A DNA stretch of 57,117 nucleotides from Candidatus Mesolinea sp. (GTDB lineage Bacteria; Chloroflexota; Anaerolineae; Anaerolineales; Anaerolineaceae): positions 967-58,083 of the forward strand of contig DMCS01000040.1 of NCBI GenBank assembly GCA_003445715.1, read 5' to 3'. Position numbers and translations under genes: made by a program. Shown here in pieces: positions 4,083 through 44,057 of the stretch (positions within the stretch are counted from its first letter, which is position 1; each line of letters starts with the position of its first letter). The notes under the pieces were generated by a model. It saw only the letters and a program-made list of their open reading frames with translations. It had not been told where the DNA came from and ran no database searches.

Positions 4083-4344
4083 CCACATTGATCCTCCTTT
4101 GAAGGATCTCCCTATTACGTTGAAGAACTTTCCGCGTCTGGTAGTTCTATTACTAATCAGGGCATATCAAATCGTAGTATCGCCAACCTTACCGCCTAAT
4201 ACTTGCCGCTACTACCCGACTTGTTCACATTACGGTTATCAAGCAGTATATAAATATGGTGCAATCAAAGGGAGCTGGATGGCATTTAAACGCATTTTGC
4301 GCTGTAACCCGTTTAACCCTGGCGGTTACGATCCAGTCCCATGA
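4045..4344 (+). CDS. yidD: Membrane protein insertion efficiency factor YidD
   Basis: Conserved core [38 protein letters not shown]. The start is uncertain and overlaps the rnpA 3' end. Confidence 0.85.
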
Positions 4345-5426
4345 ATTTTTGGAGAAATATGAAGAAACATTTTGGTTTAATCTTGATGCTGGTCTTAGCC
4401 GCTTTGGTGTTAGGCGGCTGTGCGATGGGTCCCCGCGCTGATGGCACGCCTGGCGTAAGCGCAGATGAAACGGCAGCCTACGTTTCTTACCAGCAATTTG
4501 TGTATAAAATCGATGCGGCTACGGGTACGGAAGTTTGGCGCTACCCGCAAAACGCGTCAGCCCAAATCGCTTTTTATGCGCCCCCTCTGTTGGCAGATGG
4601 GAATTTGTATGTGGGAGATCTTGCCAACAGATTCCAGCGGCTTTCAGCAGAAAATGGCAATGTCGATTGGATATTTAGCGAAGCAAAAGGATGGTTCGAA
4701 GCTAAAGCAGCCACCGATGGAAAATATATTATCGCGCCGAACCTTGACCGTAACGTATATTCCCTGACCGTTGATGGTACGTTGGCGTGGACCTATTCCA
4801 GTGAATTTGGTTTTTTAGCGGAACCTGTCGTTGTAGAGGATAAGGTTTATATTAGCTCAATGGATCACCACTTAGTTGCACTAGATATCGCTACAGGTGA
4901 TGTCCTCTGGAAAACCAAACTGAATGGCGCCTTAGTTTCCGCACCCTATTACGACGCCGAGAGCGAGGCTTTGTTCGTAGGTGGCATGGGAAAAGAGCTT
5001 ACTGCTGTAGACAGCCAGAGCGGTGAGATTCTTTGGGTTTTCAATAATAATGGTGAATTATCCAGCGTGTGGGCAACACCGGTGATGTTCGATGGCAGCG
5101 TTGTTTTTTCAGATGAAAGCGGAAAGATTTTTGGCTTGAACCCCGCTGACGGTTCTGTGAATTGGGCTTTGGACGCAGGCGGCAATGTTACCGCCGGCAT
5201 CCTTCCTCTGGAAAGCAGTTTTGTTATTGTCCGCGAGGACGGCACACTAACTGTCTATAATATGAGCGATCGTGCTCCCGTTTGGACCCGCACTATAGAG
5301 GGTCAGGTGTATTCAACACCTATCCTAGTTGGCGATAAAATTTTCATTGGTGTAAAGGGCAGCGTTTTGCTTCAAGCCTATGATCTCAACGGAAATTTAG
5401 TCTGGTCATTTACACCTGGAAGTTAA
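4341..5426 (+). CDS. PQQ-like (BamB-type) beta-propeller repeat lipoprotein
   Basis: 361 aa. Lipobox LVLGGC. Repeated motifs of the form 'G..(V/L)W(R/T/K/V)(Y/F)' spaced about 40 aa apart, typical of PQQ-like propeller blades. ATGA overlap with the yidD stop. Confidence 0.75.
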
Positions 5427-5441: not shown

Positions 5442-6350
5442 ATGTGGGATACAATTATTGTTCAACCCTTTACAAATATTTTGTTGGGAATAACCCTTGG
5501 GGTTAATAATTTTGGCATTGCCATCATTTTATTTACTTTGTTGATTAAGTTAGTTACTTACCCCCTTACAGCTAAACAAATGAAACAGACCAGAGCGATG
5601 ACTGAGTTGCAAAACAGTCCACGCTATAAAAAGATGATGGAAAAGTATAAAGATAACCAAGAAAAACTCGTCGAAGAACGATCGAAGCTTTTTCGTGAAG
5701 CTAAAGTGAACCCGGCGGGTTGCTTATTGTCATCGATTATCCAAATACCAATCATTTTGGGCCTTTACCAGAGCATTATTAAGGTCATGGCTGCCACGCC
5801 ATTGGAACTGATAAAGTTGGAGCGCATGATTTATCCTTTCTTGGATTCCAGTAAGATTCTTCCCGTTCAGAACCACTTCTTGTGGATGGATCTGGGTCAA
5901 CCCGAAAGGCTTGTGGTGGGTGGGGTCTCGATTCCAGTGCTCACAATCCTTGTAGTTTTAACGACATGGATTCAAGGTAAAGTGACGGCAACACCTTCTG
6001 GCGGGGCAAACGACCAAGGAGCAGCGATGTCTAAGAGCATGAATCTGTATATGCCCTTGCTTATGGGCTGGATTTCTTTCACGCTTGCCTCTGGGTTAGC
6101 GCTGTACTTCTTAGCCACCAACGTTGCCACAATAATTCAATATTCGATACAGGGTACGACAGATTGGTCCAAAATACTCCCCTTTATAAAGCCTAAGCCG
6201 GCCCTGGCGCCAGCTTCTAACTTGCCAGCAACTTTACTTGAAGTCCCAGAGGATGAGCCAACCCCAGAACCAAAGAAATCTACACCAAAGCCTTCTGCGC
6301 GCGCTGCAGTAAAGCAGCAGAGGCCGCCACAGAAACGCAAAAAGAAATAG
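5442..6350 (+). CDS. yidC: YidC/Oxa1-family membrane protein insertase (short form)
   Basis: 302 aa with multiple TM helices. Conserved PLTAKQMKQTRAM..LQ and NPAGCLL..IQIPI motifs. Basic C-terminal tail (QKRKKK). Confidence 0.9.
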   Translation: MWDTIIVQPFTNILLGITLGVNNFGIAIILFTLLIKLVTYPLTAKQMKQTRAMTELQNSPRYKKMMEKYKDNQEKLVEERSKLFREAKVNPAGCLLSSIIQIPIILGLYQSIIKVMAATPLELIKLERMIYPFLDSSKILPVQNHFLWMDLGQPERLVVGGVSIPVLTILVVLTTWIQGKVTATPSGGANDQGAAMSKSMNLYMPLLMGWISFTLASGLALYFLATNVATIIQYSIQGTTDWSKILPFIKPKPALAPASNLPATLLEVPEDEPTPEPKKSTPKPSARAAVKQQRPPQKRKKK

Positions 6351-6365
6351 TAAAGGGGTGTATTA

Positions 6366-7145
6366 ATGCATAAAAGTAAAACAACCTTAGAAGTCATCGC
6401 ACCCACTATTGAAGAGGCGATTGATAAAGGCCTTTCTGAGATGGGCCTTACCGAAGACGATGTGGAAATAGAAGTTTTGGATGAAGGCAAACGCAATATT
6501 TTTCATTTTGCCACACGCCAAGCACGTATTCGCCTGACCGTTAAGGATTCGAACCGCGCGATTTACAATGGTTCCGAGTTAACACAATCTGCATCACAGC
6601 CTGTGTTGGAAGAAGCACCCAAGGAAGTAAAACCGATTATCACGCCAGATACTGGACAAGAAAAAATCTCGATTGAACAACAGGTTGCCAAAGAGACAAC
6701 GCTGGAACTGTTAGAGAAGATGGGTGTCAAGGCGGGTGTGAGCGTAGGTTTTGCTGAAACTGAAGCAGACGAGAAACCTGTGATTACGGTGAATATCGAA
6801 GGAGAAGACCTAAGCTTCCTCATCGGGCGCAAGGCAGAAACGCTCAACGCGCTTCAATATCTCCTTAGCCTCATCATTGCGCATAAACTGAACTATTGGG
6901 TTCCGATTCAAGTCGACATACAGCACTATCGCACGAGGCGGGAAAATGAATTGAAGAAATTAGCCCGTCGTGCAGCAGATCAGGTGCAAAAGACGGGACG
7001 AAAGCAAGTTTTAGAGCCTATGCCCCCGAATGAACGACGAATTGTTCATATGGCGCTGCGGGAAAATGCGCATGTTTACACTGAATCTACTGGAGAGGAA
7101 CCTTACCGTAAGGTAAGCGTCTATCCTGCTGAGGATCAAGAATAA
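6366..7145 (+). CDS. jag: Jag/KhpB RNA-binding protein (Jag_N-KH-R3H)
   Basis: 259 aa. C-terminal R3H region (PNERRIVHMALRE). Canonical position after yidC. Confidence 0.85.
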   Translation: MHKSKTTLEVIAPTIEEAIDKGLSEMGLTEDDVEIEVLDEGKRNIFHFATRQARIRLTVKDSNRAIYNGSELTQSASQPVLEEAPKEVKPIITPDTGQEKISIEQQVAKETTLELLEKMGVKAGVSVGFAETEADEKPVITVNIEGEDLSFLIGRKAETLNALQYLLSLIIAHKLNYWVPIQVDIQHYRTRRENELKKLARRAADQVQKTGRKQVLEPMPPNERRIVHMALRENAHVYTESTGEEPYRKVSVYPAEDQE

Positions 7146-7163
7146 TCAAAAGGTTAAAAGCAA

Positions 7164-8471
7164 ATGCGCGCTGTTGATTTAATCATTAAAAAACGGGATA
7201 AGCTTGCCTTGACCAATGATGAGCTTGAATTTTTGGTTCAAGGCTATACCCAAGGCACAATCCCAGATTATCAAATGGCAGCCTTTGCGATGGCGGTTAC
7301 GCTGAATGGGATGACCCATCAGGAAACGACTGACCTTACAATGGCTATGGCGCACTCTGGCGAGATTCTAGACCTCAGCCAAGCAGCACCCATCGTGGTG
7401 GACAAGCATTCCACTGGTGGAGTAGGGGATAAAACGACTCTCACCGTTGCACCGCTTGTAGCTGCTTGCGGTTTACCGGTCGGGAAAATGTCTGGTCGTG
7501 GCTTAGGTTTTAGCGGTGGGACTATCGACAAGCTGGAATCAATTCCCGGGATTAAACTCGATCTAACCACAGAAGAGTTTATCCGCCAACTCAAAGAGAT
7601 CGGCATTGTCTTGACCGGTCAAAGCGCGGACTTAGCACCAGCCGATGGCAAGCTTTACGCGCTACGAGACGTCACCGGCACAGTAGAATCCATTCCCCTC
7701 ATCGCTTCCTCCATCATGAGCAAGAAGATTGCCGCAGGAGCGCATGCGATTGTTTTAGACGTCAAAGTAGGTAAAGGCGCATTTATGCCTACTTTAGAAA
7801 AGGCACGTGAACTTGCTGAGGAAATGGTTGCTATTGGGGAGCTCAGCGGAAGGCGAGTCATCGCTGTGCTTTCGCCTATGGACCAACCGCTGGGTAATGC
7901 TGTAGGAAATGCTCTCGAGCTCCGAGAAGCAGTTGAAATGCTGCACGGTGTAGGACCTGAGGATTATCGCTATCACTGCCTGCATTTGGCTGCATATATG
8001 CTCATTTTAGGGCAGAAAGCACCTGATATAGAAACAGGCTTAGCTATGGCTGAGCGAGCAAGGCAAGATGGCAGTGGTTTGCAGAAGTTCCGAGAGCTGG
8101 TTATCGCACAACATGGTGATGTGAGCACCATTGACAACCTCGATGAACTTCCTAAGGCTAAGTTTATTGAACTTGTTTTGGCTGAAAAAAGCGGCTGGGT
8201 AAACAGCGTAAACGCTAGGGAAGTGGGTGAGACCTCGGTCCAATTGGGCGCTGGCAGAGAAAAGAAAGGCGATCCGATCGATCCAGCAGTGGGGATCATG
8301 GTTTATGCCAAAATTGGCGATCAAGTTCAGGCAGGTCAGACTGTATTTGAGATTCACGCCAATGATTATGAAAAACTTATTCAGGCGAAAGAGCGCTTAA
8401 AAAAAGCCATTGAAATTACACAAGACCGGGTGGAAAGACCGCCGTATTTTCACGGCGTGATAGGATTATGA
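7164..8471 (+). CDS. pdp: Pyrimidine-nucleoside (thymidine) phosphorylase
   Basis: 435 aa. HSTGGVGDKT phosphate-binding motif, SGRGLGFSGGTIDKLESIPG, and a C-terminal PYNP_C-like domain. Confidence 0.9.
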   Translation: MRAVDLIIKKRDKLALTNDELEFLVQGYTQGTIPDYQMAAFAMAVTLNGMTHQETTDLTMAMAHSGEILDLSQAAPIVVDKHSTGGVGDKTTLTVAPLVAACGLPVGKMSGRGLGFSGGTIDKLESIPGIKLDLTTEEFIRQLKEIGIVLTGQSADLAPADGKLYALRDVTGTVESIPLIASSIMSKKIAAGAHAIVLDVKVGKGAFMPTLEKARELAEEMVAIGELSGRRVIAVLSPMDQPLGNAVGNALELREAVEMLHGVGPEDYRYHCLHLAAYMLILGQKAPDIETGLAMAERARQDGSGLQKFRELVIAQHGDVSTIDNLDELPKAKFIELVLAEKSGWVNSVNAREVGETSVQLGAGREKKGDPIDPAVGIMVYAKIGDQVQAGQTVFEIHANDYEKLIQAKERLKKAIEITQDRVERPPYFHGVIGL

Positions 8472-8527: not shown

Positions 8528-10384
8528 TTGATTACTGAAAGAACTGACCTACGCAATATTGCCATTATTGCCCATGTTGACCATGGTAAGACGACGCTAA
8601 TAGACTCGATGCTGCGCCAAGCGAAGATTTTCCGCGAAAATCAGCGCGTACAGGAGCGCATCATGGATTCTAACGACCTGGAGCGTGAGCGTGGAATTAC
8701 GATCTTAGCAAAAAACACTGCTATCAGCATACCCAACCCCAAAACCGGCGAATTGGTAAAGATCAATATCGTCGATACACCTGGTCATGCTGATTTTGGT
8801 GGAGAAGTAGAGCGCATTATGAACATGGTGGATGGTGTGCTTTTGCTGGTGGATGCCGCCGAGGGACCTAAACCACAAACCCGCTTTGTGCTCAAACAAG
8901 CTATCACTAAGAACCTGAAAACGATTGTGGTGATCAATAAACTGGACCGAAAGGATGCCGATGTTGAAAGCGCAATTAATAACACCTTTGACCTGTTTGT
9001 GGAATTAGGCGCAAGTGATGAATTAACAGATTTTCCGATAATTTATGCCAATGGGCTGGAAGGCAAATCAGGGCTTACCCCTAATCTGGACAATGATTTG
9101 CATGCTTTGTTTACGTGTATTTCGGATAACATTCCTACCCCAAAGGTGGATCTAGAGGCACCTTTTCAGATGCTGGTCACCAATCTTGGTTATGATGAAT
9201 ACAGTGGGGTTACCGCCGTTGGGCGTATCCATGCCGGTAAATTGACCACTGGTCAAATGTTAGCGCGCATCAAGCACGATGGCAGCCTTGAAAAGGTTCA
9301 AGCGCGCTATGTGTACGCATTCCAGGGATTAGATAAAGTGTTGGTTGATCGTGTGGAAGCCGGTGAGATTATTACCATTGGAGGGCTTAAGGATATCCAA
9401 ATTGGAGAGACTTTAGCTGATCTCGAAAATCCAGTAGCGTTGCCTATAATCACAGTGCAGCAGCCTACAGTGCAAATGACCTTTGGAGTTAATACTTCAC
9501 CATTTTCAGGTCAGGAGGGGAAGTGGAGTACATCTCGCAAGCTATTGGAAAGACTACAAGATGAATTGCGTACGAATATAGCATTGCGTGTGGAGCAAAC
9601 CGACGCAAACGATGTCTTTCTCGTCTCCGGAAGAGGTGAGTTGCATTTGGGCATCCTCATCGAAACAATGCGGCGCGAAGGCTATGAATTCCAAGTTTCT
9701 CGCCCTGAGGCGATTGTGGTCACAGGTGAAGATGGTAAAAAGGTCGAACCTTTTGAGGAAGTGCATGTGGATGTCGATCCAGATTATGTTGGCGCAGTGG
9801 TGGAGCTCCTCGGTCAGCGGCGCGGAAAGATGACCAATATGATCAATAACCCTGATAATACTGTGCATCTGACCTATGAAATGCCCACACGGGGGTTGTT
9901 GGGTTTCCGTTACAAATTCCTCACAATCACGCGTGGAAAAGGCGTGTTGAACTCTTTCTATATTGGACTTCGACCGCTAGAAGGACCAATTGAAACAAAA
10001 CAAGCCAGCTCAATCGTCGCGCGGGAGACCGGCGTCACCACCACTTTTGGCTTGAGGAATGCTGAGCAGCGGGGTCAACTTTTTGTTGGGCCGGGTGTTC
10101 CCGTTTATGAAGGTATGATCGTAGGTGAAACACCAAGGCCGCAGGATTTATCCATCAACGTAGCAAAGAAGAAACATCTAACTAACATGCGCCAATCCAT
10201 TCGCGACCTGGAGGATAAACTCAATCCACCGCGATCGCTCAGCTTGGATGAAATGATCGAATATATTGGTCCAGATGAACTTTTGGAAGTGACACCGCAA
10301 AGTCTGCGGATGCGCAAGCGCATTTTAGAGACGCACGAACGCCTGCGTTATGAAAAAACTGGTGAGGTCGTAGAAGACGACTAA
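8528..10384 (+). CDS. typA: Translational GTPase TypA/BipA
   Basis: 618 aa. G1 [10 protein letters not shown]3 DTPGHADF, G4 NKLD. Full-length similarity pattern to BipA. TTG start. Confidence 0.95.
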
Positions 10385-37713: not shown

Positions 37714-38271
37714 CTAAACTCTGGTGATATATTCCCCAGTGCGGGTATCCACGCGGATCACATCACCTTCTTCAACGAAGGAGGGAACCTGGACTTTCAG
37801 GCCGGTTTCGGTGACGATTTGCTTCGTGACGCCGGTGGCTGTATTGCCTCTGGCTGATGGTTCCGCAGTAACAACTTCCAAATCCACGCTAGTGGGCAAC
37901 TCGATATCTAAAGGCTCGTCCCCAAAAAAGGTCAGTTTCACCTCCATATCTCCTTTGAGGAAACCGGCATAATCACCTATCAGCTCAGCGGGGATGGCGG
38001 GTTGTTCGAAGGTGTTCATGTCCATAAAGTAGAAGAAATTATCATCGCGGTAAAGGTATTGCACATTATGGTAATCCAGCTGGATATCTTGCACGCGATC
38101 CCCGGAGATAAAAGTCATTTCAAGCATATTACCCTTGCGCAAGTTGCGCGCTTTCACGCGGATGGTGGCTGTCCCCCGGCCAGGTTTATTGTGCGTATAG
38201 TCTAAGACTTTATAAAGCTCACCATCCAGCTGAAAGGTAACGCCTTTGCGCAATTCATTTACATCAATCAT
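37714..38271 (-). CDS. efp: Elongation factor P
   Basis: 185 aa with three-domain EF-P pattern. The loop sequence is KPGRGTA, with Arg32 at the position of the usually modified Lys. Confidence 0.95.
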   Translation of the reverse strand: MIDVNELRKGVTFQLDGELYKVLDYTHNKPGRGTATIRVKARNLRKGNMLEMTFISGDRVQDIQLDYHNVQYLYRDDNFFYFMDMNTFEQPAIPAELIGDYAGFLKGDMEVKLTFFGDEPLDIELPTSVDLEVVTAEPSARGNTATGVTKQIVTETGLKVQVPSFVEEGDVIRVDTRTGEYITRV

Positions 38272-38435
38272 ATAGTAAACCTCTCACAAAATTTTCTGTT
38301 AACGGGCAGATTATAAATCAGGCAAAGGGCAATGACAAGCCCGATAAAAATGTAACGAATGCTCGTTTAGTGGGTTTATAATATCAGAAAAGTAAAGTCC
38401 ATACCACGTTAATATATCCTTAGGAAAGAGAAATT

Positions 38436-39563
38436 ATGATCACTATTGTTCCAGTCAATAGCAAAAAACTACAAAAGCAATTTGTCGAATTCCAATACCA
38501 GCTCTACGAGAACTGCCCACAATTTACCCCACCGATAAAAAGTGATATTTACGCAATGATGAATCCTAAAAAGCATCCCTATTATGAGCATTCGGATGCC
38601 GATTTTTTTCTAGCACTGGATGGAGATAAAGTTGTTGGCCGTATTGCAGCCTTGCAAAACAAACCCTTTAACGCTTACCATCACACCAAGGATGCCGAAT
38701 TTTATCTGTTCGACTGCATTGATAGCCAAGAAGTTGCAAATGCACTCTTTGACCGGGTTGCGGAATGGGCGAAAGCCCGCGGAATGAACCGATTAGTGGG
38801 TCCTAAAGGCTTTGGCCCGCTGGATGGCTATGGCATTCAAATCGAGGGCTTTGAACACCACCAGATGATGAACATGATGAATTACAACTATCCTTACTAC
38901 CGCGATTTGGTGGAAAATTATGGCTTTGTCAAAGAGGTTGACTTTGTATCCAGTTATGTCAATCCACAGAATCTCGAGGTACCAGAAAAGGTGGCTAAGG
39001 CGGTAAGCATAGCCAAAAAACGCAACACACTGACAATCAAGAATTTTAAGAATAAAGCCGAAATCCGCAAATGGGCACCCAAGATTCGGGAAGCCTATAA
39101 CGGTGCTTTCGTCAATAACTGGGAATACTATCCTCTCACTGAGCGGGAGATTAACTTTGTGGTGGATAATGCCATCATTTTGGTAATTCCTGAACTTCTG
39201 CAACTGGTGCTCAAAGGCGATAAGGTGGTTGGATTTGTGCTGCCCTTTCCGGATGTCTCCGAAGCATTTAAGAAGAATAAGGGTAAATTAGGGCCGATTG
39301 AAATCTTGCGCATCCTGCGGGAAATCAATAAGACTAATTGGATCGACTTTAATGGCATCGGCATTTTGCCAGAAGCGCAAGGTTTTGGCGGTAACGCACT
39401 CATATATGACATTCTCATTCGATCGGTTAGAGATAATCCACGTTATCAGCATGCCGAGCTGACCCAGGTGGCAGAGACAGCGGAGCAGATGCGTAAAGAT
39501 TTGCTTAACCTCGGCTGCACGTTTTACAAGAACCACCGGGTGTATAAAAAAGCGCTCGCGTAA
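38436..39563 (+). CDS. GNAT-like N-acetyltransferase family protein (putative)
   Basis: 375 aa. Resembles a family of long GNAT-fold hypothetical proteins (C-terminal GILPE.QG.G.N). Assigned from memory only. Confidence 0.55.
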   Translation: MITIVPVNSKKLQKQFVEFQYQLYENCPQFTPPIKSDIYAMMNPKKHPYYEHSDADFFLALDGDKVVGRIAALQNKPFNAYHHTKDAEFYLFDCIDSQEVANALFDRVAEWAKARGMNRLVGPKGFGPLDGYGIQIEGFEHHQMMNMMNYNYPYYRDLVENYGFVKEVDFVSSYVNPQNLEVPEKVAKAVSIAKKRNTLTIKNFKNKAEIRKWAPKIREAYNGAFVNNWEYYPLTEREINFVVDNAIILVIPELLQLVLKGDKVVGFVLPFPDVSEAFKKNKGKLGPIEILRILREINKTNWIDFNGIGILPEAQGFGGNALIYDILIRSVRDNPRYQHAELTQVAETAEQMRKDLLNLGCTFYKNHRVYKKALA

Positions 39564-39583
39564 AATCAAAGCAAAACGCAATT

Positions 39584-39616
39584 AACAGCAGGCTTTATCA
39601 GAGTCTGCTGTTTTTT
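39584..39616 (+). terminator. Rho-independent terminator after the GNAT-like gene
   Basis: Stem AACAGCAG (39584-39591) / CTGCTGTT (39605-39612), 13-nt loop, T-run to 39616. Confidence 0.55.
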
Positions 39617-39679
39617 ATAGATGCACCCCAGGTATAATTGAAGAAAAACTCGTCTAGTTGGTAAAGGAGGGACAAGGCA

Positions 39680-40429
39680 ATGGCAAAATATAAACAGCGC
39701 AAGCGTAATCTCTATGAAAACACTTCCGATACTTATGCAATCTCACGATCTAAGATAGACCTGTTTATCAACTGCCCGCGTTGTTTTTATCTTGATAGGA
39801 AGCTTGGCTTGGCTCAGCCTTCCATGCCAGGCTGGCCTCTCAATTCTGCAGTTGATTACCTTCTGAAGCAGGAATTTGACTATTATCGAAAACTGCAACA
39901 ACCTCACCCAATTATGCTTCAATATGGCATTGATGCCGTCCCTTTTTCTCATCCCGATTTACCATTTTGGCGAGATGACGTCTACCATTATGTGGGGGCT
40001 TCCGTTGTGGATGAACAAACTGGTTTCCAGGTTCAGGGAATTATTGATGATGTATGGATCACACCTCAAGGGGAACTCCACATCGTAGACTACAAGTCCA
40101 CTTCTACCTCCAGTGAAATTAGTTTAGAAGATGAATATAAACGGCCTTACAAGCGTCAAATGGAAGTCTACCAATGGATTTTCAGGAAAATGGGCTTTAA
40201 GGTCTCCTCGGTGGGGTATTTTGTTTTTGCTAATGCTTTGAAGGACCGCGATTTTTTTGATAACAAACTTGAGTTTGAACTAACGATTCTCTCTCATCAC
40301 GGGGACGATTCTTGGGTTAGTCCCACTCTGATGGAAATGAAAACAGTTCTGGATAGCGATACTTTACCAGAGGCAAATCCTGATTGCGAATATTGTGAAT
40401 ACCGCCGGTTAATCAAAGAAGTGGAATAG
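39680..40429 (+). CDS. PD-(D/E)XK nuclease, Cas4/RecB-like with Cys cluster
   Basis: 249 aa. N-terminal CPRCFY, GIIDDV, the nuclease core IVDYKST, QMEVY, and C-terminal CEYCEY (2+2 Cys, potentially an Fe-S or Zn site). SD AAGGAGG lies upstream. Confidence 0.75.
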   Translation: MAKYKQRKRNLYENTSDTYAISRSKIDLFINCPRCFYLDRKLGLAQPSMPGWPLNSAVDYLLKQEFDYYRKLQQPHPIMLQYGIDAVPFSHPDLPFWRDDVYHYVGASVVDEQTGFQVQGIIDDVWITPQGELHIVDYKSTSTSSEISLEDEYKRPYKRQMEVYQWIFRKMGFKVSSVGYFVFANALKDRDFFDNKLEFELTILSHHGDDSWVSPTLMEMKTVLDSDTLPEANPDCEYCEYRRLIKEVE

Positions 40430-40647
40430 TCAAAAAGGGGAGCACATTGTTCCATGTCCGTTTAGGCACCAAAAAATCCCACAATCTGCCGGCGCCATGT
40501 TAATGCTCATGCCGATGATGGAGATCGGGCGTGTTTTTGTATTCCTGTGTTTCGTGAGTATGTATGTGGTTGTGGAAATGACTGTGTAGGATCTGCCTCT
40601 TAATGAACAATGCGCGTTAAAAACCTACCAATTATCTGAAATATTAG

Positions 40648-40671
40648 AGCGGGTGATGGGATTCGAACCCA
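40648..40671. repeat. Direct repeat copy 1 (orphan copy of tRNA-Gly 3' end; distal att site of island)
   Basis: AGCGGGTGATGGGATTCGAACCCA is identical to 42997-43020. The flanking bases differ on both sides. Confidence 0.85.
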
Positions 40672-40739
40672 TGGTACGGTATAATAGATAAATGATATAG
40701 GCTAATCTTAGTAAATTATCACAATAAATTTGCAATCAT

Positions 40740-42242
40740 ATGAAAACAATAATCGATCTTTCTAATGAAGAAGCAAAAGTTTATTTTCTTAAGGGAAGTA
40801 GCTATTTTAATAATGATTTGCCCAACTATGTTAGCTTTGAACCAATTCTAACTAATGTTTTGAAAATATTAGACGGAAATGATATCAAAATATTCCAAAA
40901 AAGAAATCCAAGTGATTTTTCAGATGTAAATTATAGTTTAATCACTAACAAAGATGGTAAATTTGCTTGGCGGCCGATTGAATTAATTCATCCAGTAATT
41001 TATGTTTCTTTAGTAAATTTGATATGTGAACCTACTAACTGGGCTATTATTTTGCAACGTTTATCAGAATTTGAGAGTGGGCCAATTGACTGCTGCAGCT
41101 TGCCGACGGTATCTACTGATCAACAAAAAGATGTTGAGGAGACAATAAAAAATTGGTGGCAAGAAATTGAGCAAAAATCTTTAAAACTTTCTTTAGAATA
41201 TAGCCACATCCTTCAAACTGATGTAGTAGATTGTTATGGTTCTCTTTATACACACAGTATTCCTTGGGCAATTCATGGACGTGATGAATCAAAGAAAAAA
41301 AGAGCGGATAAATCTCTATTAGGAAATAAAATTGATAGTCTAATCCAAGCGGGTAGATATGGACAAACCAATGGAATTTCTCAAGGTTCGACTTTAATGG
41401 ACTTTATAGCGGAACTTGTTCTTGGATTTGTTGACTCACAAATCAGTCAAGAATTAAAAGATAAAAAAATAGAGGATTTTCATATTCTTAGATATCGTGA
41501 TGATTATAGAATTTTTGGGAACAGCGATGAGACGGTTGAAGCTATTTTACAAGTGGTTAGTGAAAAATTAAGAATGGTGGGCATGAAATTAGGAACATCC
41601 AAGACACAATTAAGCAGAAATATTGTAGGTGGATCTATAAAACCAGATAAATTAGCTGCTATAGCGTTGTCTGATTTAGGGGAAGAAAATGCACAGACAT
41701 TACAAAAGCAACTTCTTCGGCTTCATTCTTTTGGCCTACAATATCCTAACAGTGGTGCGCTTCGACGTTTACTTAGTATTTATTATAAAAATTTATCTGA
41801 TAACAAGGGAAAGCCAAAAGACCTTGAGGTATTATTAGCAATTGCAACTGATATTGGGTTTGTTTCCCCATCTACCTTTCCAGGTATAGCTGGTATATTA
41901 AGCTATTTGCTCTCACTAGCTCCACCTGGACAAAAAAATAACTTGTGGGATAAGGTACTCAAGAAAATGAAGCATATTCCTTATAATGGATTTCTTGAAA
42001 TATGGCTTCAACGAATAGTCGTACCAAAAGAAATAAACATCTCGTTTGAAAGTGCTGAGGCAATATGTAGAATTGTTAATGGTCAATCCATAAATTTGTG
42101 GGAAAACGGATGGATTTCTAATAATGATCTCAAGAAGGCATTAGATACCTCAAATATTGTCGTAAAGATTGCATCTGAAGTAGAGGAAGTTGTCCAATAT
42201 GACGAAATCGCATTATTCAACCAGAAGGCAATAGAATATTAG
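40740..42242 (+). CDS. Reverse transcriptase, UG/Abi/DRT-like (defence-associated type)
   Basis: 500 aa. Motif A LQTDVVDCYGSLYTHSI (Asp161). Motif B GISQGSTLMDFIAELVL. Motif C ILRYRDDYRIF (Asp254-Asp255). KLGTSKT beta-hairpin motif. About 150 aa N-terminal extension and about 200 aa helical C-terminal region. Confidence 0.85.
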   Translation: MKTIIDLSNEEAKVYFLKGSSYFNNDLPNYVSFEPILTNVLKILDGNDIKIFQKRNPSDFSDVNYSLITNKDGKFAWRPIELIHPVIYVSLVNLICEPTNWAIILQRLSEFESGPIDCCSLPTVSTDQQKDVEETIKNWWQEIEQKSLKLSLEYSHILQTDVVDCYGSLYTHSIPWAIHGRDESKKKRADKSLLGNKIDSLIQAGRYGQTNGISQGSTLMDFIAELVLGFVDSQISQELKDKKIEDFHILRYRDDYRIFGNSDETVEAILQVVSEKLRMVGMKLGTSKTQLSRNIVGGSIKPDKLAAIALSDLGEENAQTLQKQLLRLHSFGLQYPNSGALRRLLSIYYKNLSDNKGKPKDLEVLLAIATDIGFVSPSTFPGIAGILSYLLSLAPPGQKNNLWDKVLKKMKHIPYNGFLEIWLQRIVVPKEINISFESAEAICRIVNGQSINLWENGWISNNDLKKALDTSNIVVKIASEVEEVVQYDEIALFNQKAIEY

Positions 42243-42348
42243 ATTAATTAATACTAGAAACCAAAATAACATTAACTTTTATCTAAACAGATACATATAA
42301 TAACTCACTGTGGCAAGTGATTCGATTCGAATTACAATCTATAATTAA

Positions 42349-42954
42349 TTGGATATGGATAATCAATCAAAATCAAAATGGGAACATTTTCTTGACCCAG
42401 AAGTTTTAAGGCCAAACTTAATTTTTGCATCAATTTATATTGCTGCTTTTGAAATCCTGCAAAATTCTATTGTTGAGCGGATTAAAGATTTTTATACAAT
42501 AGAATTTAATGAAAATGGTTCGATAATCATGCCTGAATATCAAGAAGACGTTTTATCCAAAGATAAAAGTCATACTTATGCTTCGCTGAAATGGCTAAAA
42601 GAAAATAGTGCAATTGATGATGAAGATTTTGAAAAGTTCGAGAAAATCAAAGATTATCGTAATCTTTTGGCTCATGAGATTTCAAGAATGTTGATGGATG
42701 GTCTACCGCCTGATATTGGAGATAGATTTAAGGACATGATTTCATTATTAGACAAGATAGAAAAATGGTGGATTATCAATTTTGAGATTCCGATAAATCC
42801 GGACTTCGATGGTAAACACGACGAAATTAATGAAAGCGAAATATTTCCCGGACCAATTTTGATCTTGAAAATAATGATTGATGTTGCTCTCGGATCTGAA
42901 GAAGAGGCAAATTTCTATATAAATGAATATAAGAAAAGCTTAAGAAGCTCATAA
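42349..42954 (+). CDS. HEPN-like (Rx4H) putative RNase effector partner of the RT
   Basis: 201 aa, soluble and predicted helical by eye. KIKDYRNLLAHEIS contains R104-N-L-L-A-H109, the HEPN Rx4-6H signature with Asn after Arg. The start could be TTG 42349 or ATG 42355. Confidence 0.5.
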   Translation: MDMDNQSKSKWEHFLDPEVLRPNLIFASIYIAAFEILQNSIVERIKDFYTIEFNENGSIIMPEYQEDVLSKDKSHTYASLKWLKENSAIDDEDFEKFEKIKDYRNLLAHEISRMLMDGLPPDIGDRFKDMISLLDKIEKWWIINFEIPINPDFDGKHDEINESEIFPGPILILKIMIDVALGSEEEANFYINEYKKSLRSS

Positions 42955-42996
42955 TCAATTTTGGGGGAAAACATAATGCTGAAAGGGCGGAAAAAA

Positions 42997-43020
42997 AGCG
43001 GGTGATGGGATTCGAACCCA
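42997..43020. repeat. Direct repeat copy 2 (within the intact tRNA-Gly 3' end; proximal att site)
   Basis: Identical 24-mer to 40648-40671. Covers tRNA positions from the 3' half of the T-arm through the discriminator base. Confidence 0.85.
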
Positions 43021-43068
43021 CGAATGGTAGCTTGGGAAGCTACTGCCTTACCACTTGGCGACACCCGC
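42997..43068 (-). tRNA. tRNA-Gly (anticodon CCC)
   Basis: Folded by hand. 7-bp acceptor stem GCGGGTG/CACCCGC. D-arm with GG loop. 5-bp anticodon stem GTAGC/GCTAC with loop TT-CCC-AA. 5-nt variable loop. T-arm GTGGG-TTCGAAT-CCCAT. U discriminator. CCA is not encoded. Confidence 0.9.
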
Positions 43069-43197
43069 TTTGCACATATATTTTATCGCAAATTTTCAAA
43101 ACGCAATCGCTTTGTCTCCAAAAAACACCAAATTTCTTTTTATCCTTATAATTAGGGTTGATCAGGCGCGATCGAAACTTAAAAAGGAGAGCAAACT

Positions 43198-43623
43198 ATG
43201 GACGCAAGTGCTAAGAGGGAGCAATTTCAGCGAAAAAAACCCTCAGCCCTAAAATTGTTTTTAAATTCGCGTGGTAATTCTTTTAAGTATGCTAGCCGAG
43301 GGTTGCGCTATGTCATCCGCACACAAAAAAACGCCTGGATCCATTCTGCGATAATGCTCGTAGTCATTGCAGTTAGTTTTTGGCTGCAATTAGAACGCAT
43401 GGAATGGGTAGCGATCCTTTTGGTCATTGGCATGGTATGGACGGCAGAATTTATTAATACCTCTTTAGAGAGCATTGTTGATATGACCAGCCCAGAGCGC
43501 CATCCGCTCGCGCAAGTAGGCAAGGATGTTGCTGCTGCAGCAGTTCTGTTTGCTGCGATTATCGCTGTTATTGTTGGAATCTTGGTTCTAGGCCCACATT
43601 TGCGAATTAAACTTGGGTTGTAA
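43198..43623 (+). CDS. dgkA: Diacylglycerol/undecaprenol kinase (DgkA family)
   Basis: 141 aa with 3 TM helices. R..N..IH, E.(I/L)NT..E..VD motifs. SD AAAGGAGAG lies upstream. Confidence 0.85.
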   Translation: MDASAKREQFQRKKPSALKLFLNSRGNSFKYASRGLRYVIRTQKNAWIHSAIMLVVIAVSFWLQLERMEWVAILLVIGMVWTAEFINTSLESIVDMTSPERHPLAQVGKDVAAAAVLFAAIIAVIVGILVLGPHLRIKLGL

Positions 43624-43703
43624 TAAAGTTGAATAAGGTTTCAACTTTTCATGGAAATTATTCATGTATACTATCGTCAGAAATTAATTGAAGGAGATTA
43701 TAA

Positions 43704-44057
43704 ATGATTAGTGAACCGATTCATGTGACTGACGCAGCATTCCAGAAGACCGTGCTGGAATCCCCCGTCCCTGTGATTGTGGACTTTTGGGCACCTTGGT
43801 GTGGTCCCTGCCGAATGGTTGCGCCCACCTTAGAGAAGGTTGCCAAAGAATATGCTGATAAACTCATCGTAGCTAAGGTCAACACCGATGAAAATCAACA
43901 ATGGGCAAGCAAATACAATGTAGAAGGTATTCCAACAATGTTAATGATCGCTGACGGGAAAGTGGTGCATCGCCAGGTGGGGGCATTACCTGAGCCGATG
44001 CTACGGGAGGTCATCGATCAGTTCTTGAAAGTAGTTGACGGCCACAAGAAGAACTAA
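43704..44057 (+). CDS. trxA: Thioredoxin
   Basis: 117 aa. Active site WAPWCGPCRM. SD GAAGGAGA lies upstream. Confidence 0.95.
   Translation: MISEPIHVTDAAFQKTVLESPVPVIVDFWAPWCGPCRMVAPTLEKVAKEYADKLIVAKVNTDENQQWASKYNVEGIPTMLMIADGKVVHRQVGALPEPMLREVIDQFLKVVDGHKKN

Follow-up and report, generated by a model that had tools for sequence, protein, structure and literature searches.

An Abi-P2-family polymerase gene and a probably HEPN-like gene in an integrase-less tRNA-Gly islet of an Anaerolineaceae-like bacterium

The islet and its two genes

The DNA analyzed here, called the window throughout, is the whole 57,117-nucleotide (nt) stretch of Candidatus Mesolinea sp. contig DMCS01000040.1 (assembly GCA_003445715.1, positions 967 to 58,083). 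An AT-rich insert of 2,325 bp (40672-42996) sits at the 3' end of a tRNA-Gly(CCC) gene in this window, with a guanine-plus-cytosine (GC) content of 0.323 versus 0.463 across the 57 kb. Only two open reading frames (ORFs) of at least 50 amino acids (aa) in this islet are not nested inside another: ORF1, which encodes a reverse transcriptase (RT)-like polymerase, and ORF2, which encodes a small, probably HEPN-like protein. A preliminary description of the DNA had picked out these two co-directional ORFs, 106 nt apart, as the sole cargo of the insert; the list of ORFs reproduces this, and all motifs, residues and coordinates given for the two proteins were reproduced as well. That description went on to propose an undescribed two-gene anti-phage system of an RT and a HEPN RNase, and this report concerns the families of the two genes, their carriage and the question of whether they act together. 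The islet is bounded as follows; loci collected for comparison carry L numbers.

40648..40671, no strand: left direct repeat (attL-like), a displaced copy of the last 24 nt of tRNA-Gly, perfect match
40672..42996, no strand: islet without an integrase, delimited by GC contrast and by the empty sites in L176 and L177
42996..43069, minus strand: tRNA-Gly(CCC), the integration target (ARAGORN; Rfam RF00005, 65 bits)
42997-43020: right direct repeat, the 3' 24 nt of the tRNA

Copies of a tRNA 3' end had been seen on both sides of the insert, and they are indeed a perfect repeat: the 24-nt sequence AGCGGGTGATGGGATTCGAACCCA is identical at 40648-40671 and 42997-43020. L176, a contig of the metagenome-assembled genome (MAG) GCA_036744375.1, and L177 are sister Anaerolineaceae-type contigs with flanks about 80% identical to those of the window, and they share with it the gene order GNAT, PD-(D/E)XK, tRNA-Gly, diacylglycerol kinase, thioredoxin. 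In both, the flanks join with one copy of the 24-nt sequence, window 38000-40671 aligning to L176 4321-6989 and window 42997-44024 to L176 6966-7995. Because these empty sites keep exactly one 24-nt copy, the islet is proven to be a genuine, tRNA-targeted insertion. It is compact and free of pseudogene debris. No integrase was found within it, and a crude regular-expression search of the 57-kb window for the C-terminal motif of tyrosine recombinases gave no candidate; mobilization in trans or loss of the integrase therefore has to be assumed. The features of the two genes are as follows.

40740..42242, plus strand: ORF1, Abi-P2-family RT-like polymerase, 500 aa (PADLOC AbiP2, PDB 7R08)
40827-40829, plus strand: putative priming Tyr30 of ORF1, from alignment to Abi-P2 Tyr61
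41220-41222, plus strand: motif A Asp161 of ORF1, in LQTDVVDCYGSLYTHSI at residues 158-174
ORF1 residues 212-228: GISQGSTLMDFIAELVL
41499-41504, plus strand: motif C YRDD of ORF1, Asp254/255, in ILRYRDDYRIF at residues 249-259
ORF1 residues 293-462/497: C-terminal helical domain, from alignment to 7R08 and the AbiP2 profile
42355..42954, plus strand: ORF2, unannotated family, probably HEPN-like, 199 aa (201 aa from TTG 42349), from homologue alignment
ORF2 from residue 101: KDYRNLLAHE, with R104 at nt 42658-42660 and H109 at nt 42673-42675

The family of ORF1 is clearly indicated by profile and structure searches. The PADLOC AbiP2 model (PDLC03744) matches residues 1-497 on profile positions 4-487 of 489 with E=3.9e-192 and 637 bits, and the runner-up PADLOC models, RT_UG14 (168 bits, 1e-49) and Drt6 (163 bits), lie about 470 bits below it. 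Chain A of PDB 7R08, the Abi-P2 structure, aligns to residues 1-462 through fingers, palm and helical domain (E=5.5e-80), and the Abi-P2 proteins of P2-EC30 and P2-EC58 are 34-35% identical to ORF1 over 92% of the protein (E=3e-76; 34.7% for P2-EC30). Pfam RVT_1 scores 45.3 bits against a cutoff of 29.6. Motif C, RYRDDYRIF, is common to ORF1 and 7R08, with Y252-R-D254-D255 aligned, and ORF1 residue 1 corresponds to chain residue 32 of 7R08; hence chain Tyr61 (LPAY) corresponds to ORF1 Tyr30 (LPNY). The alignments to 7R08 and to the AbiP2 profile run on through residues 293-462/497, the helical domain that stands in the place of the thumb. Since the AbiP2 match is full-length and is joined by the 7R08 match, the identity to the prototypes and the conserved residues, ORF1 belongs in a characterized family, and by these sequence criteria we assign it to Abi-P2, a known family, as a new and divergent member whose active site is intact. 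The earlier view of ORF1 as a UG/Abi-type defense RT with an intact active site is thereby confirmed; the exclusion of Abi-P2 is refuted by the full-length AbiP2 match and the match to 7R08, which put ORF1 inside a well-characterized RT family.

The prototype of the family comes from the E. coli P2-EC30/EC58 prophages, and the AbiP2 group belongs to the Class 1 UG/Abi RTs, with PDB 7R08 as its structure. Abi-P2 is listed among stand-alone defense proteins (PMC9226505), and literature cited in PMC11077055 has Abi-P2 alone as experimentally sufficient in E. coli. The family chemistry is protein-primed, template-independent synthesis of single-stranded DNA (ssDNA) (PMC9508834, PMC11077055); Tyr61, on the fingers loop, primes DNA synthesis and a Y61F mutant is inactive (PMC9508834). 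ORF1 resembles the prototype in its profile match, YRDD motif, priming tyrosine, mobile carriage and the lack of a conserved partner, and differs from it in being only about 35% identical and in having an Anaerolineaceae-like rather than an enterobacterial host. The prototype lies in a hypervariable region of the P2 prophage, whereas ORF1 lies in a 2.3-kb integrase-less tRNA islet beside a HEPN-like gene. By homology to the protein described in PMC9508834, ORF1 would assemble into trimers or hexamers, synthesize ssDNA without a template and confer phage resistance. A noncoding RNA (ncRNA) partner, as in retrons or DRT2, was considered and rejected: the islet scanned against Rfam (E<=1) gave the tRNA as its sole match and no ncRNA, which fits the template-independent chemistry of Abi-P2.

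For ORF2 the more likely start is ATG 42355, as its homologues open with 'MD......WERFL' and the gene in L007, a locus syntenic with the window, is called from the equivalent ATG. The protein is then 199 aa long and the spacer to ORF1 measures 112 nt (106 nt with TTG 42349), so the Rx4H motif with Asn noted earlier stands and the start noted with it gives way to a likelier one. A single-sequence search found 184 relatives and a family-profile search at least 1,111 clusters at 90% identity; family lengths are nearly all 195-210 aa and there is no annotation. No Pfam domains occur among the listed members of the profile search, so they provide no transitive link to a named HEPN family. R104, N105 and H109 are shared without exception by 62 family members (50-93% identity to ORF2), and because of this invariance we regard the RNxxxH motif in the alignment as not due to chance.

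HEPN-type families are the sole Pfam matches of ORF2, all below the gathering score: HepT-like (0.0059), RiboL-PSP (0.011), Cthe_2314 (0.02) and DUF4145 (0.021), which we take to be HEPN-clan families, along with a sub-threshold match to MAE_28990-HEPN. When the 62 members were searched at E<=0.05, DUF4145 was matched by 27, HepT-like by 16, Cthe_2314 by 14 and RiboL-PSP by 8, again sub-threshold, and just 2 + 2 of the 62 reach E<=1e-3 against HEPN-type families. PADLOC, NCBIfam and PHROGs gave nothing usable for ORF2: Csx1 at 0.011 is the sole PADLOC model matched, and NCBIfam HepT_toxin scores 15.5 bits against a cutoff of 60. The AlphaFold2 (AF2) model is confident and helical, with a predicted local distance difference test score (pLDDT) of 89.8 and a predicted template-modeling score (pTM) of 0.84; it places the motif in the helix 91-117 and has an extra beta-hairpin and C-terminal helices. 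Foldseek found nothing significant for this model in the PDB, the best match being Csm6 at E 0.4, and the weak matches are enriched in HEPN proteins (Csm6, 1wty, 1wwp, 6m6u and HepT) with target-normalized template-modeling (TM) scores of at most 0.48. Neither Foldseek against BFVD nor a family-profile search of PDB sequences returned anything significant. Taken together, ORF2 is probably HEPN-like and may act as a HEPN RNase. As to the HEPN identity claimed in the preliminary description, the invariant R and H and the weak HEPN-clan matches speak for it, and the AF2 and Foldseek check yielded no significant structural match.

ORF2 is similar to the stand-alone HEPN toxins (HepT, AbiU2, AbiJ/Abi_C, RiboL-PSP, DUF4145) in being small and helical with an Rx4-6H motif that includes Asn, and it shares defense-island-like neighborhoods with stand-alone HEPN abortive-infection and toxin proteins. 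It differs from them in its larger size of about 200 aa, in its beta-hairpin and in falling below the gathering threshold of every family. Neighbors of ORF2 relatives include TIR PDC-S35, AbiJ-like Abi_C, HEPN_AbiU2, a methylase, toxin-antitoxin (TA) modules and metabolic genes. An MNT-type antitoxin or any other conserved neighbor was not found across 89 ORF2 loci, so the family does not follow the organization of HepT-MntA (type VII).

A different identity of ORF2 has to be weighed against this evidence. Integron cassettes encode many functions, and ORF2 could be a cassette protein that is neither a HEPN RNase nor a defense gene (for example, an addiction toxin or a stress-adaptation protein), with RNxxxH serving some different chemistry or binding. 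The lack of a significant structural match, the sub-threshold level of all profile matches and the absence of any matching PADLOC defense model besides Csx1 would agree with such a role. We nevertheless consider it unlikely: many members match HEPN-clan families and no others, the weak Foldseek top matches are enriched in HEPN proteins, the invariant R-N-x3-H lies on a long helix, and the neighbors are often defense or TA genes. Moreover, integron cassettes do carry phage defense genes (bioRxiv 10.1101/2024.07.02.601719).

Two further observations were made among the ORF2 relatives. In L020, L022 (4463-5980) and L027 (601-2121) a TIR protein of about 505 aa (PADLOC PDC-S35, E~1e-67; Pfam CAP12-PCTIR_TIR) is encoded upstream of the ORF2 relative, with 21 nt between them, and a conserved 159-aa ORF lies just downstream; these three genes may form a small recurrent defense cluster in one lineage. 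The sole relative of more than 40% identity found in the annotated plasmid collection is a 43% identical hypothetical protein of Salinivibrio kushneri (WP_025639236.1; NZ_CP114591.1 174751-175341, corresponding to L175 6001-6591). It is encoded on a 607-kb replicon amid small hypothetical genes, a nucleotidyltransferase-domain gene, insertion sequence transposases and an integrase.

ORF1 and ORF2 lack conserved linkage

Co-occurrence of the two genes was examined in 80 species-representative genome loci with ORF1-like RTs of 39-66% identity, each taken with +-6 kb, and in 80 metagenome loci with ORF2 relatives of 48-71% identity. No ORF2 relative was present within +-6 kb in any of the RT loci (0/80), nor was an ORF1-like RT present in any of the ORF2 loci (0/80). 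Family hidden Markov models (HMMs), applied to every reading frame of 459 kb and 875 kb of sequence, detected no further co-occurrence. Clustering of recurrent neighbors likewise revealed no conserved partner, the largest cluster covering 4/89 ORF2 loci and 7/80 RT loci. Fusions of an RT with ORF2 were absent among the best 120 homologues of each search, in which RT lengths ranged from 496 to 523 aa and ORF2 lengths from 161 to 268 aa. Scans of viral contigs yielded one locus each. Conserved linkage between ORF1 and ORF2 is lacking.

The pair was seen in two lineages alone. One comprises the window and L007/L008, which are colinear and syntenic with it at 78% nucleotide identity. The other, L170-172, has the reversed order, in which an ORF2-like gene is followed by a 108-nt gap and then the RT. 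The reversed pair in L170 is bracketed by imperfect direct repeats of about 105 nt with 71% identity (5818-5921 and 8562-8666); read on the minus strand, these resemble the tyrosine-recombinase C-terminal LGHS...Y.H motif (AGMLGHSISILLNTYAHFIPTMQDQAA), and their sequence suggests decayed pieces of an integrase at either end of the pair. We also considered that a single circular RT-ORF2 element had been opened at different points in the two lineages; this was dropped, the junctions of the window and L170 having no similarity.

L180 is a sibling locus, 93% identical to L007 at the same tRNA-Gly site, in which ORF2 carries a natural 535-nt internal deletion (L180 2127-2353, compared with L007 2989-3588). 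The deletion removes ORF2 codons ~3-181, leaving the spacer and ~57 nt at the 3' end of the gene, and the RT is intact at 504 aa with both YRDD and LPxY present.

We conclude that the islet probably holds two autonomous single-gene defense-type modules and not one two-gene system. In the model of the preliminary description the two genes act as one system: the HEPN-like RNase is licensed by the RT, either through its sensing of infection or through a DNA product that it makes. What speaks for it is that the adjacency is seen twice, in opposite orders and co-directionally each time, that both genes lie inside one repeat-bounded unit kept in the window and L007, and that combinations of RT and HEPN arose repeatedly in UG/Abi and retron systems (PMC9226505, PMC11077055). 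This explanation appears unlikely given that co-occurrence is zero in both directions and that, outside the syntenic loci, the closest relatives of ORF1 and of ORF2 are single cassettes. In L092 an islet carries the RT by itself, L180 keeps its RT after the deletion of ORF2, no fusions occur among the listed homologues and Abi-P2 suffices alone in E. coli. The claim of an undescribed RT and HEPN two-gene system thus fails on the co-occurrence counts, with which the HMM scans agree, and on the loss of ORF2 in L180.

A narrower version of the idea is that the window/L007 and L170 lineages recruited Abi-P2 and ORF2 into a functional partnership, in which, for instance, the protein-linked ssDNA or the polymerase oligomer would gate the RNase. 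This would be an Abi-P2 variant with a separate HEPN gene, assembled at least twice from neighboring integron cassettes. We hold both the recruitment and such a repeatedly assembled variant to be doubtful.

Several observations weigh against the two-module interpretation. There are two seemingly independent adjacencies of opposite order, both co-directional and with spacers of ~106-108 nt, which exceeds what pure chance might give and may point to a functional synergy. Between its repeats, the pair of the window lineage has stayed intact across ~22% nucleotide divergence. Depending on the age of the ORF2 deletion, the RT of L180 could be a recent relic. Finally, the assignment of ORF2 to HEPN is not proven: its Pfam matches are sub-threshold and no structural match is significant.

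Comparison with known RT and HEPN combinations is also informative. In AbiA (AbiA-large: an RT, a helical domain and a fused C-terminal HEPN domain), as in the window pair, a HEPN-like module accompanies an Abi-type RT-like polymerase. AbiA performs protein-primed untemplated synthesis, and its fused HEPN domain mediates dimerization and is catalytically inactive (PMC11077055). In contrast to this fused domain, ORF2 is a separate gene that is dispensable in L180 and mostly solo elsewhere. The PADLOC AbiA model matches ORF1 only in part (E=7.2e-10, residues 66-293), NCBIfam abortive_AbiA reaches 38 bits against a cutoff of 250, and ORF2 has no match at E<=1 to the 604-position PADLOC AbiA model. 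The 'split AbiA' architecture put forward earlier was rejected, as ORF1 matches AbiA weakly and partially and ORF2 not at all.

An RT with a separate HEPN-like gene, as proposed for the window pair, is found in UG22 and UG19-small, multi-gene Class 1 systems that carry a HEPN gene (cluster 79) and a distant-HEPN gene (cluster 1465), respectively (PMC9226505). Other groups thus already provide precedents for this architecture. By their descriptions, from which this contrast is drawn, the HEPN gene in UG22 and UG19-small is a systematic neighbor, whereas the association in the window is sporadic (0/80, 0/80). ORF1 matches the PADLOC RT_UG19 model (1.2e-10) far less well than AbiP2, and the 25 models listed do not include RT_UG22.

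Carriage of the two genes and the tRNA-Gly site

Integron attC sites, imperfect palindromes of the form RYYYAAC ... GTTRRRY, were searched for with a detector calibrated on shuffled sequences (threshold 11; false positives <=0.75%; shuffled controls 2/390). With it, 18 of ~78 ORF2 loci and 7 of 80 RT loci showed an attC site on one or both sides. The ORF2 relatives in L001, L009, L010, L013, L014, L016, L024, L043, L050, L051, L056, L057, L066, L067, L071 and L074 are single-gene cassettes flanked by textbook GGCTAAC...GTTAGCC sites; an example is L056, with sites at 965-1024 and 1633-1692. In these cassettes 10-30 nt separate the GTTRRRY core from the ATG that follows it, and the next attC starts inside the stop codon (GGC-TAA-C ...), which falls within the inverse core. 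The loci examined showed no integron integrase. The window genes and L170 have no recognizable attC (best score <=6.5 against the threshold of 11). Mobile and chromosomal integrons carry phage-defense cassettes (bioRxiv 10.1101/2024.07.02.601719; PMC12614218); ORF2 relatives and some ORF1 relatives fit this pattern, whereas the window copies lie in a tRNA islet without attC.

The closest non-syntenic relative of ORF1, a 66% identical RT in a Candidatus Abawacabacteria MAG (L090, MEWR01000025.1), is itself an integron cassette of ~1.7 kb between attC sites of ~130 nt, read by eye, at 4314-4443 and 6057-6185. These sites align with those beside the ORF2 cassettes in L009, L013 and L024, and a common pool of cassettes thus contains the nearest relatives of ORF1 and ORF2 alike. 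Since cassette arrays give co-directional genes in either order about 100 nt apart, we suspect that the adjacency of ORF1 and ORF2 began as two neighboring cassettes, which we offer as a hypothesis only. Probable Bacteroidota-type attC sites were also observed next to RTs in L135, L148, L156 and L163.

RTs of this family also travel in islets. An Anaerolineae MAG (L092, DUED01000030.1) has a 1.8-kb integrase-less islet (5752-7630) between tRNA-Asn and a 37-nt (95%) copy of the tRNA 3' end, with the RT and no ORF2; apart from the different tRNA and the missing ORF2 it is built like the window islet. Exact repeats, 24 to 108 nt long, flank further RT loci. In L181 (120-3290; ENA ERZ4756918 NODE_12505) a 375-aa tyrosine integrase (Phage_integrase) is followed by a 118-aa ORF and, 546 nt downstream of the integrase, by a 68% identical RT. 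L181 could be a complete integrative element ancestral to the integrase-less RT islets.

The window islet might in turn be the decaying remnant of a larger integrative element, with one or both genes as relics. Its lack of an integrase, together with the failure of the crude search to find one in the 57-kb window, would agree with this, as would the degenerate left repeat in L007/L180, the ORF2 deletion in L180 and the RT next to an integrase in L181. We judge it very improbable: both ORFs are full length with their key residues present, the window repeats are perfect and the islet is compact. In addition, the ratio of nonsynonymous to synonymous substitution rates (dN/dS) relative to L007 is 0.20 for ORF1 and 0.27 for ORF2 over ~22% nucleotide divergence. 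Both islet genes are thus under purifying selection, weaker than that on the neighboring host gene for a PD-(D/E)XK nuclease (0.045).

The tRNA-Gly gene is present at the syntenic site in L176, L177, L178 and L180 as well. The site is empty in L176/L177, holds RT and ORF2 in the window and L007, RT only in L180 and other cargo in L178/L179; it is a strain-variable hotspot. The other cargo (L178 6856-10421, and L179) consists of an EamA transporter and a P-type ATPase between the PD-(D/E)XK gene and tRNA-Gly. It has a host-like GC of 0.50-0.55 and no second tRNA-end repeat, window 40535-40647 is also absent, and its flanks match window 38000-40534 and 42993-43152 at 98-99% identity.

The gene immediately before the islet, at window 39680-40429 (plus strand), encodes a 249-aa PD-(D/E)XK/Cas4-like nuclease, with a Pfam PDDEXK_1 match at 1.8e-16 and PADLOC Cas4 models matching down to 6e-10. 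It was ruled out as a third component: it lies outside the repeats, has host-like GC and the low dN/dS given above, is also present at the empty sites and is absent from 80/80 RT loci. This gene is a conserved host gene and no part of the islet.

The spacer between ORF1 and ORF2 has some features of its own.

42303..42342, plus strand: conserved spacer block ACTCACTGTGGCAAGTGATTCGATTCGAATTACAATCTAT, kept between the window and L007
42321-42331: perfect palindrome TTCGATTCGAA, within the conserved spacer block
42333-42338: -10-like TACAAT, 17 nt before ATG 42355

Comparison of the spacer with that of L007 shows conservation near ORF2 and divergence in the distal part. The block at 42303-42342 is possibly ORF2's own promoter or operator with a very short leader. 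Promoter-like hexamers are present in the spacer region in a number no higher than chance, and a promoter and terminator scan of the islet gave counts not above the shuffled expectation.

Proposed function and significance

With ORF1 and ORF2 as separate modules, the following mechanism can be proposed. Site-specific recombination would have inserted the islet at the tRNA-Gly(CCC) 3' end in an Anaerolineaceae-like bacterium, presumably mobilized by an integrase supplied in trans. ORF1 would oligomerize and join the first nucleotide to its own Tyr30, after which the YRDD site would extend random-sequence ssDNA without a template, leading to phage resistance of the abortive-infection type. ORF2 would act alone as a divergent HEPN-type RNase with R104, N105 and H109 as catalytic residues, probably across a homodimer as in other HEPN proteins. 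We infer a defense function in the window host for either gene.

For annotation, ORF1 should be named an Abi-P2-family defense polymerase and not a novel RT system. The finding extends the Abi-P2 family, known mainly from E. coli P2 prophages, into the Chloroflexota, and it shows that Abi-P2 relatives move both in integron cassettes and in very small tRNA islets that lack an integrase. The ORF2 family offers the more useful lead: it is large (the clusters counted above), unannotated, cassette-borne and found beside known defense genes. From its sequence features this family is a reasonable candidate for a new stand-alone HEPN-like defense or toxin gene, and as a single 600-bp gene ORF2 is easily testable. 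The one chromosomal site provides a natural series (empty, RT and ORF2, RT only, other cargo) for asking about an interaction between the two genes. If such an interaction were true, it would bear on how untemplated DNA synthesis of the Abi-P2/AbiK type stops phage, and a partnership of ORF1 and ORF2 would give an Abi-P2-type polymerase its first effector.

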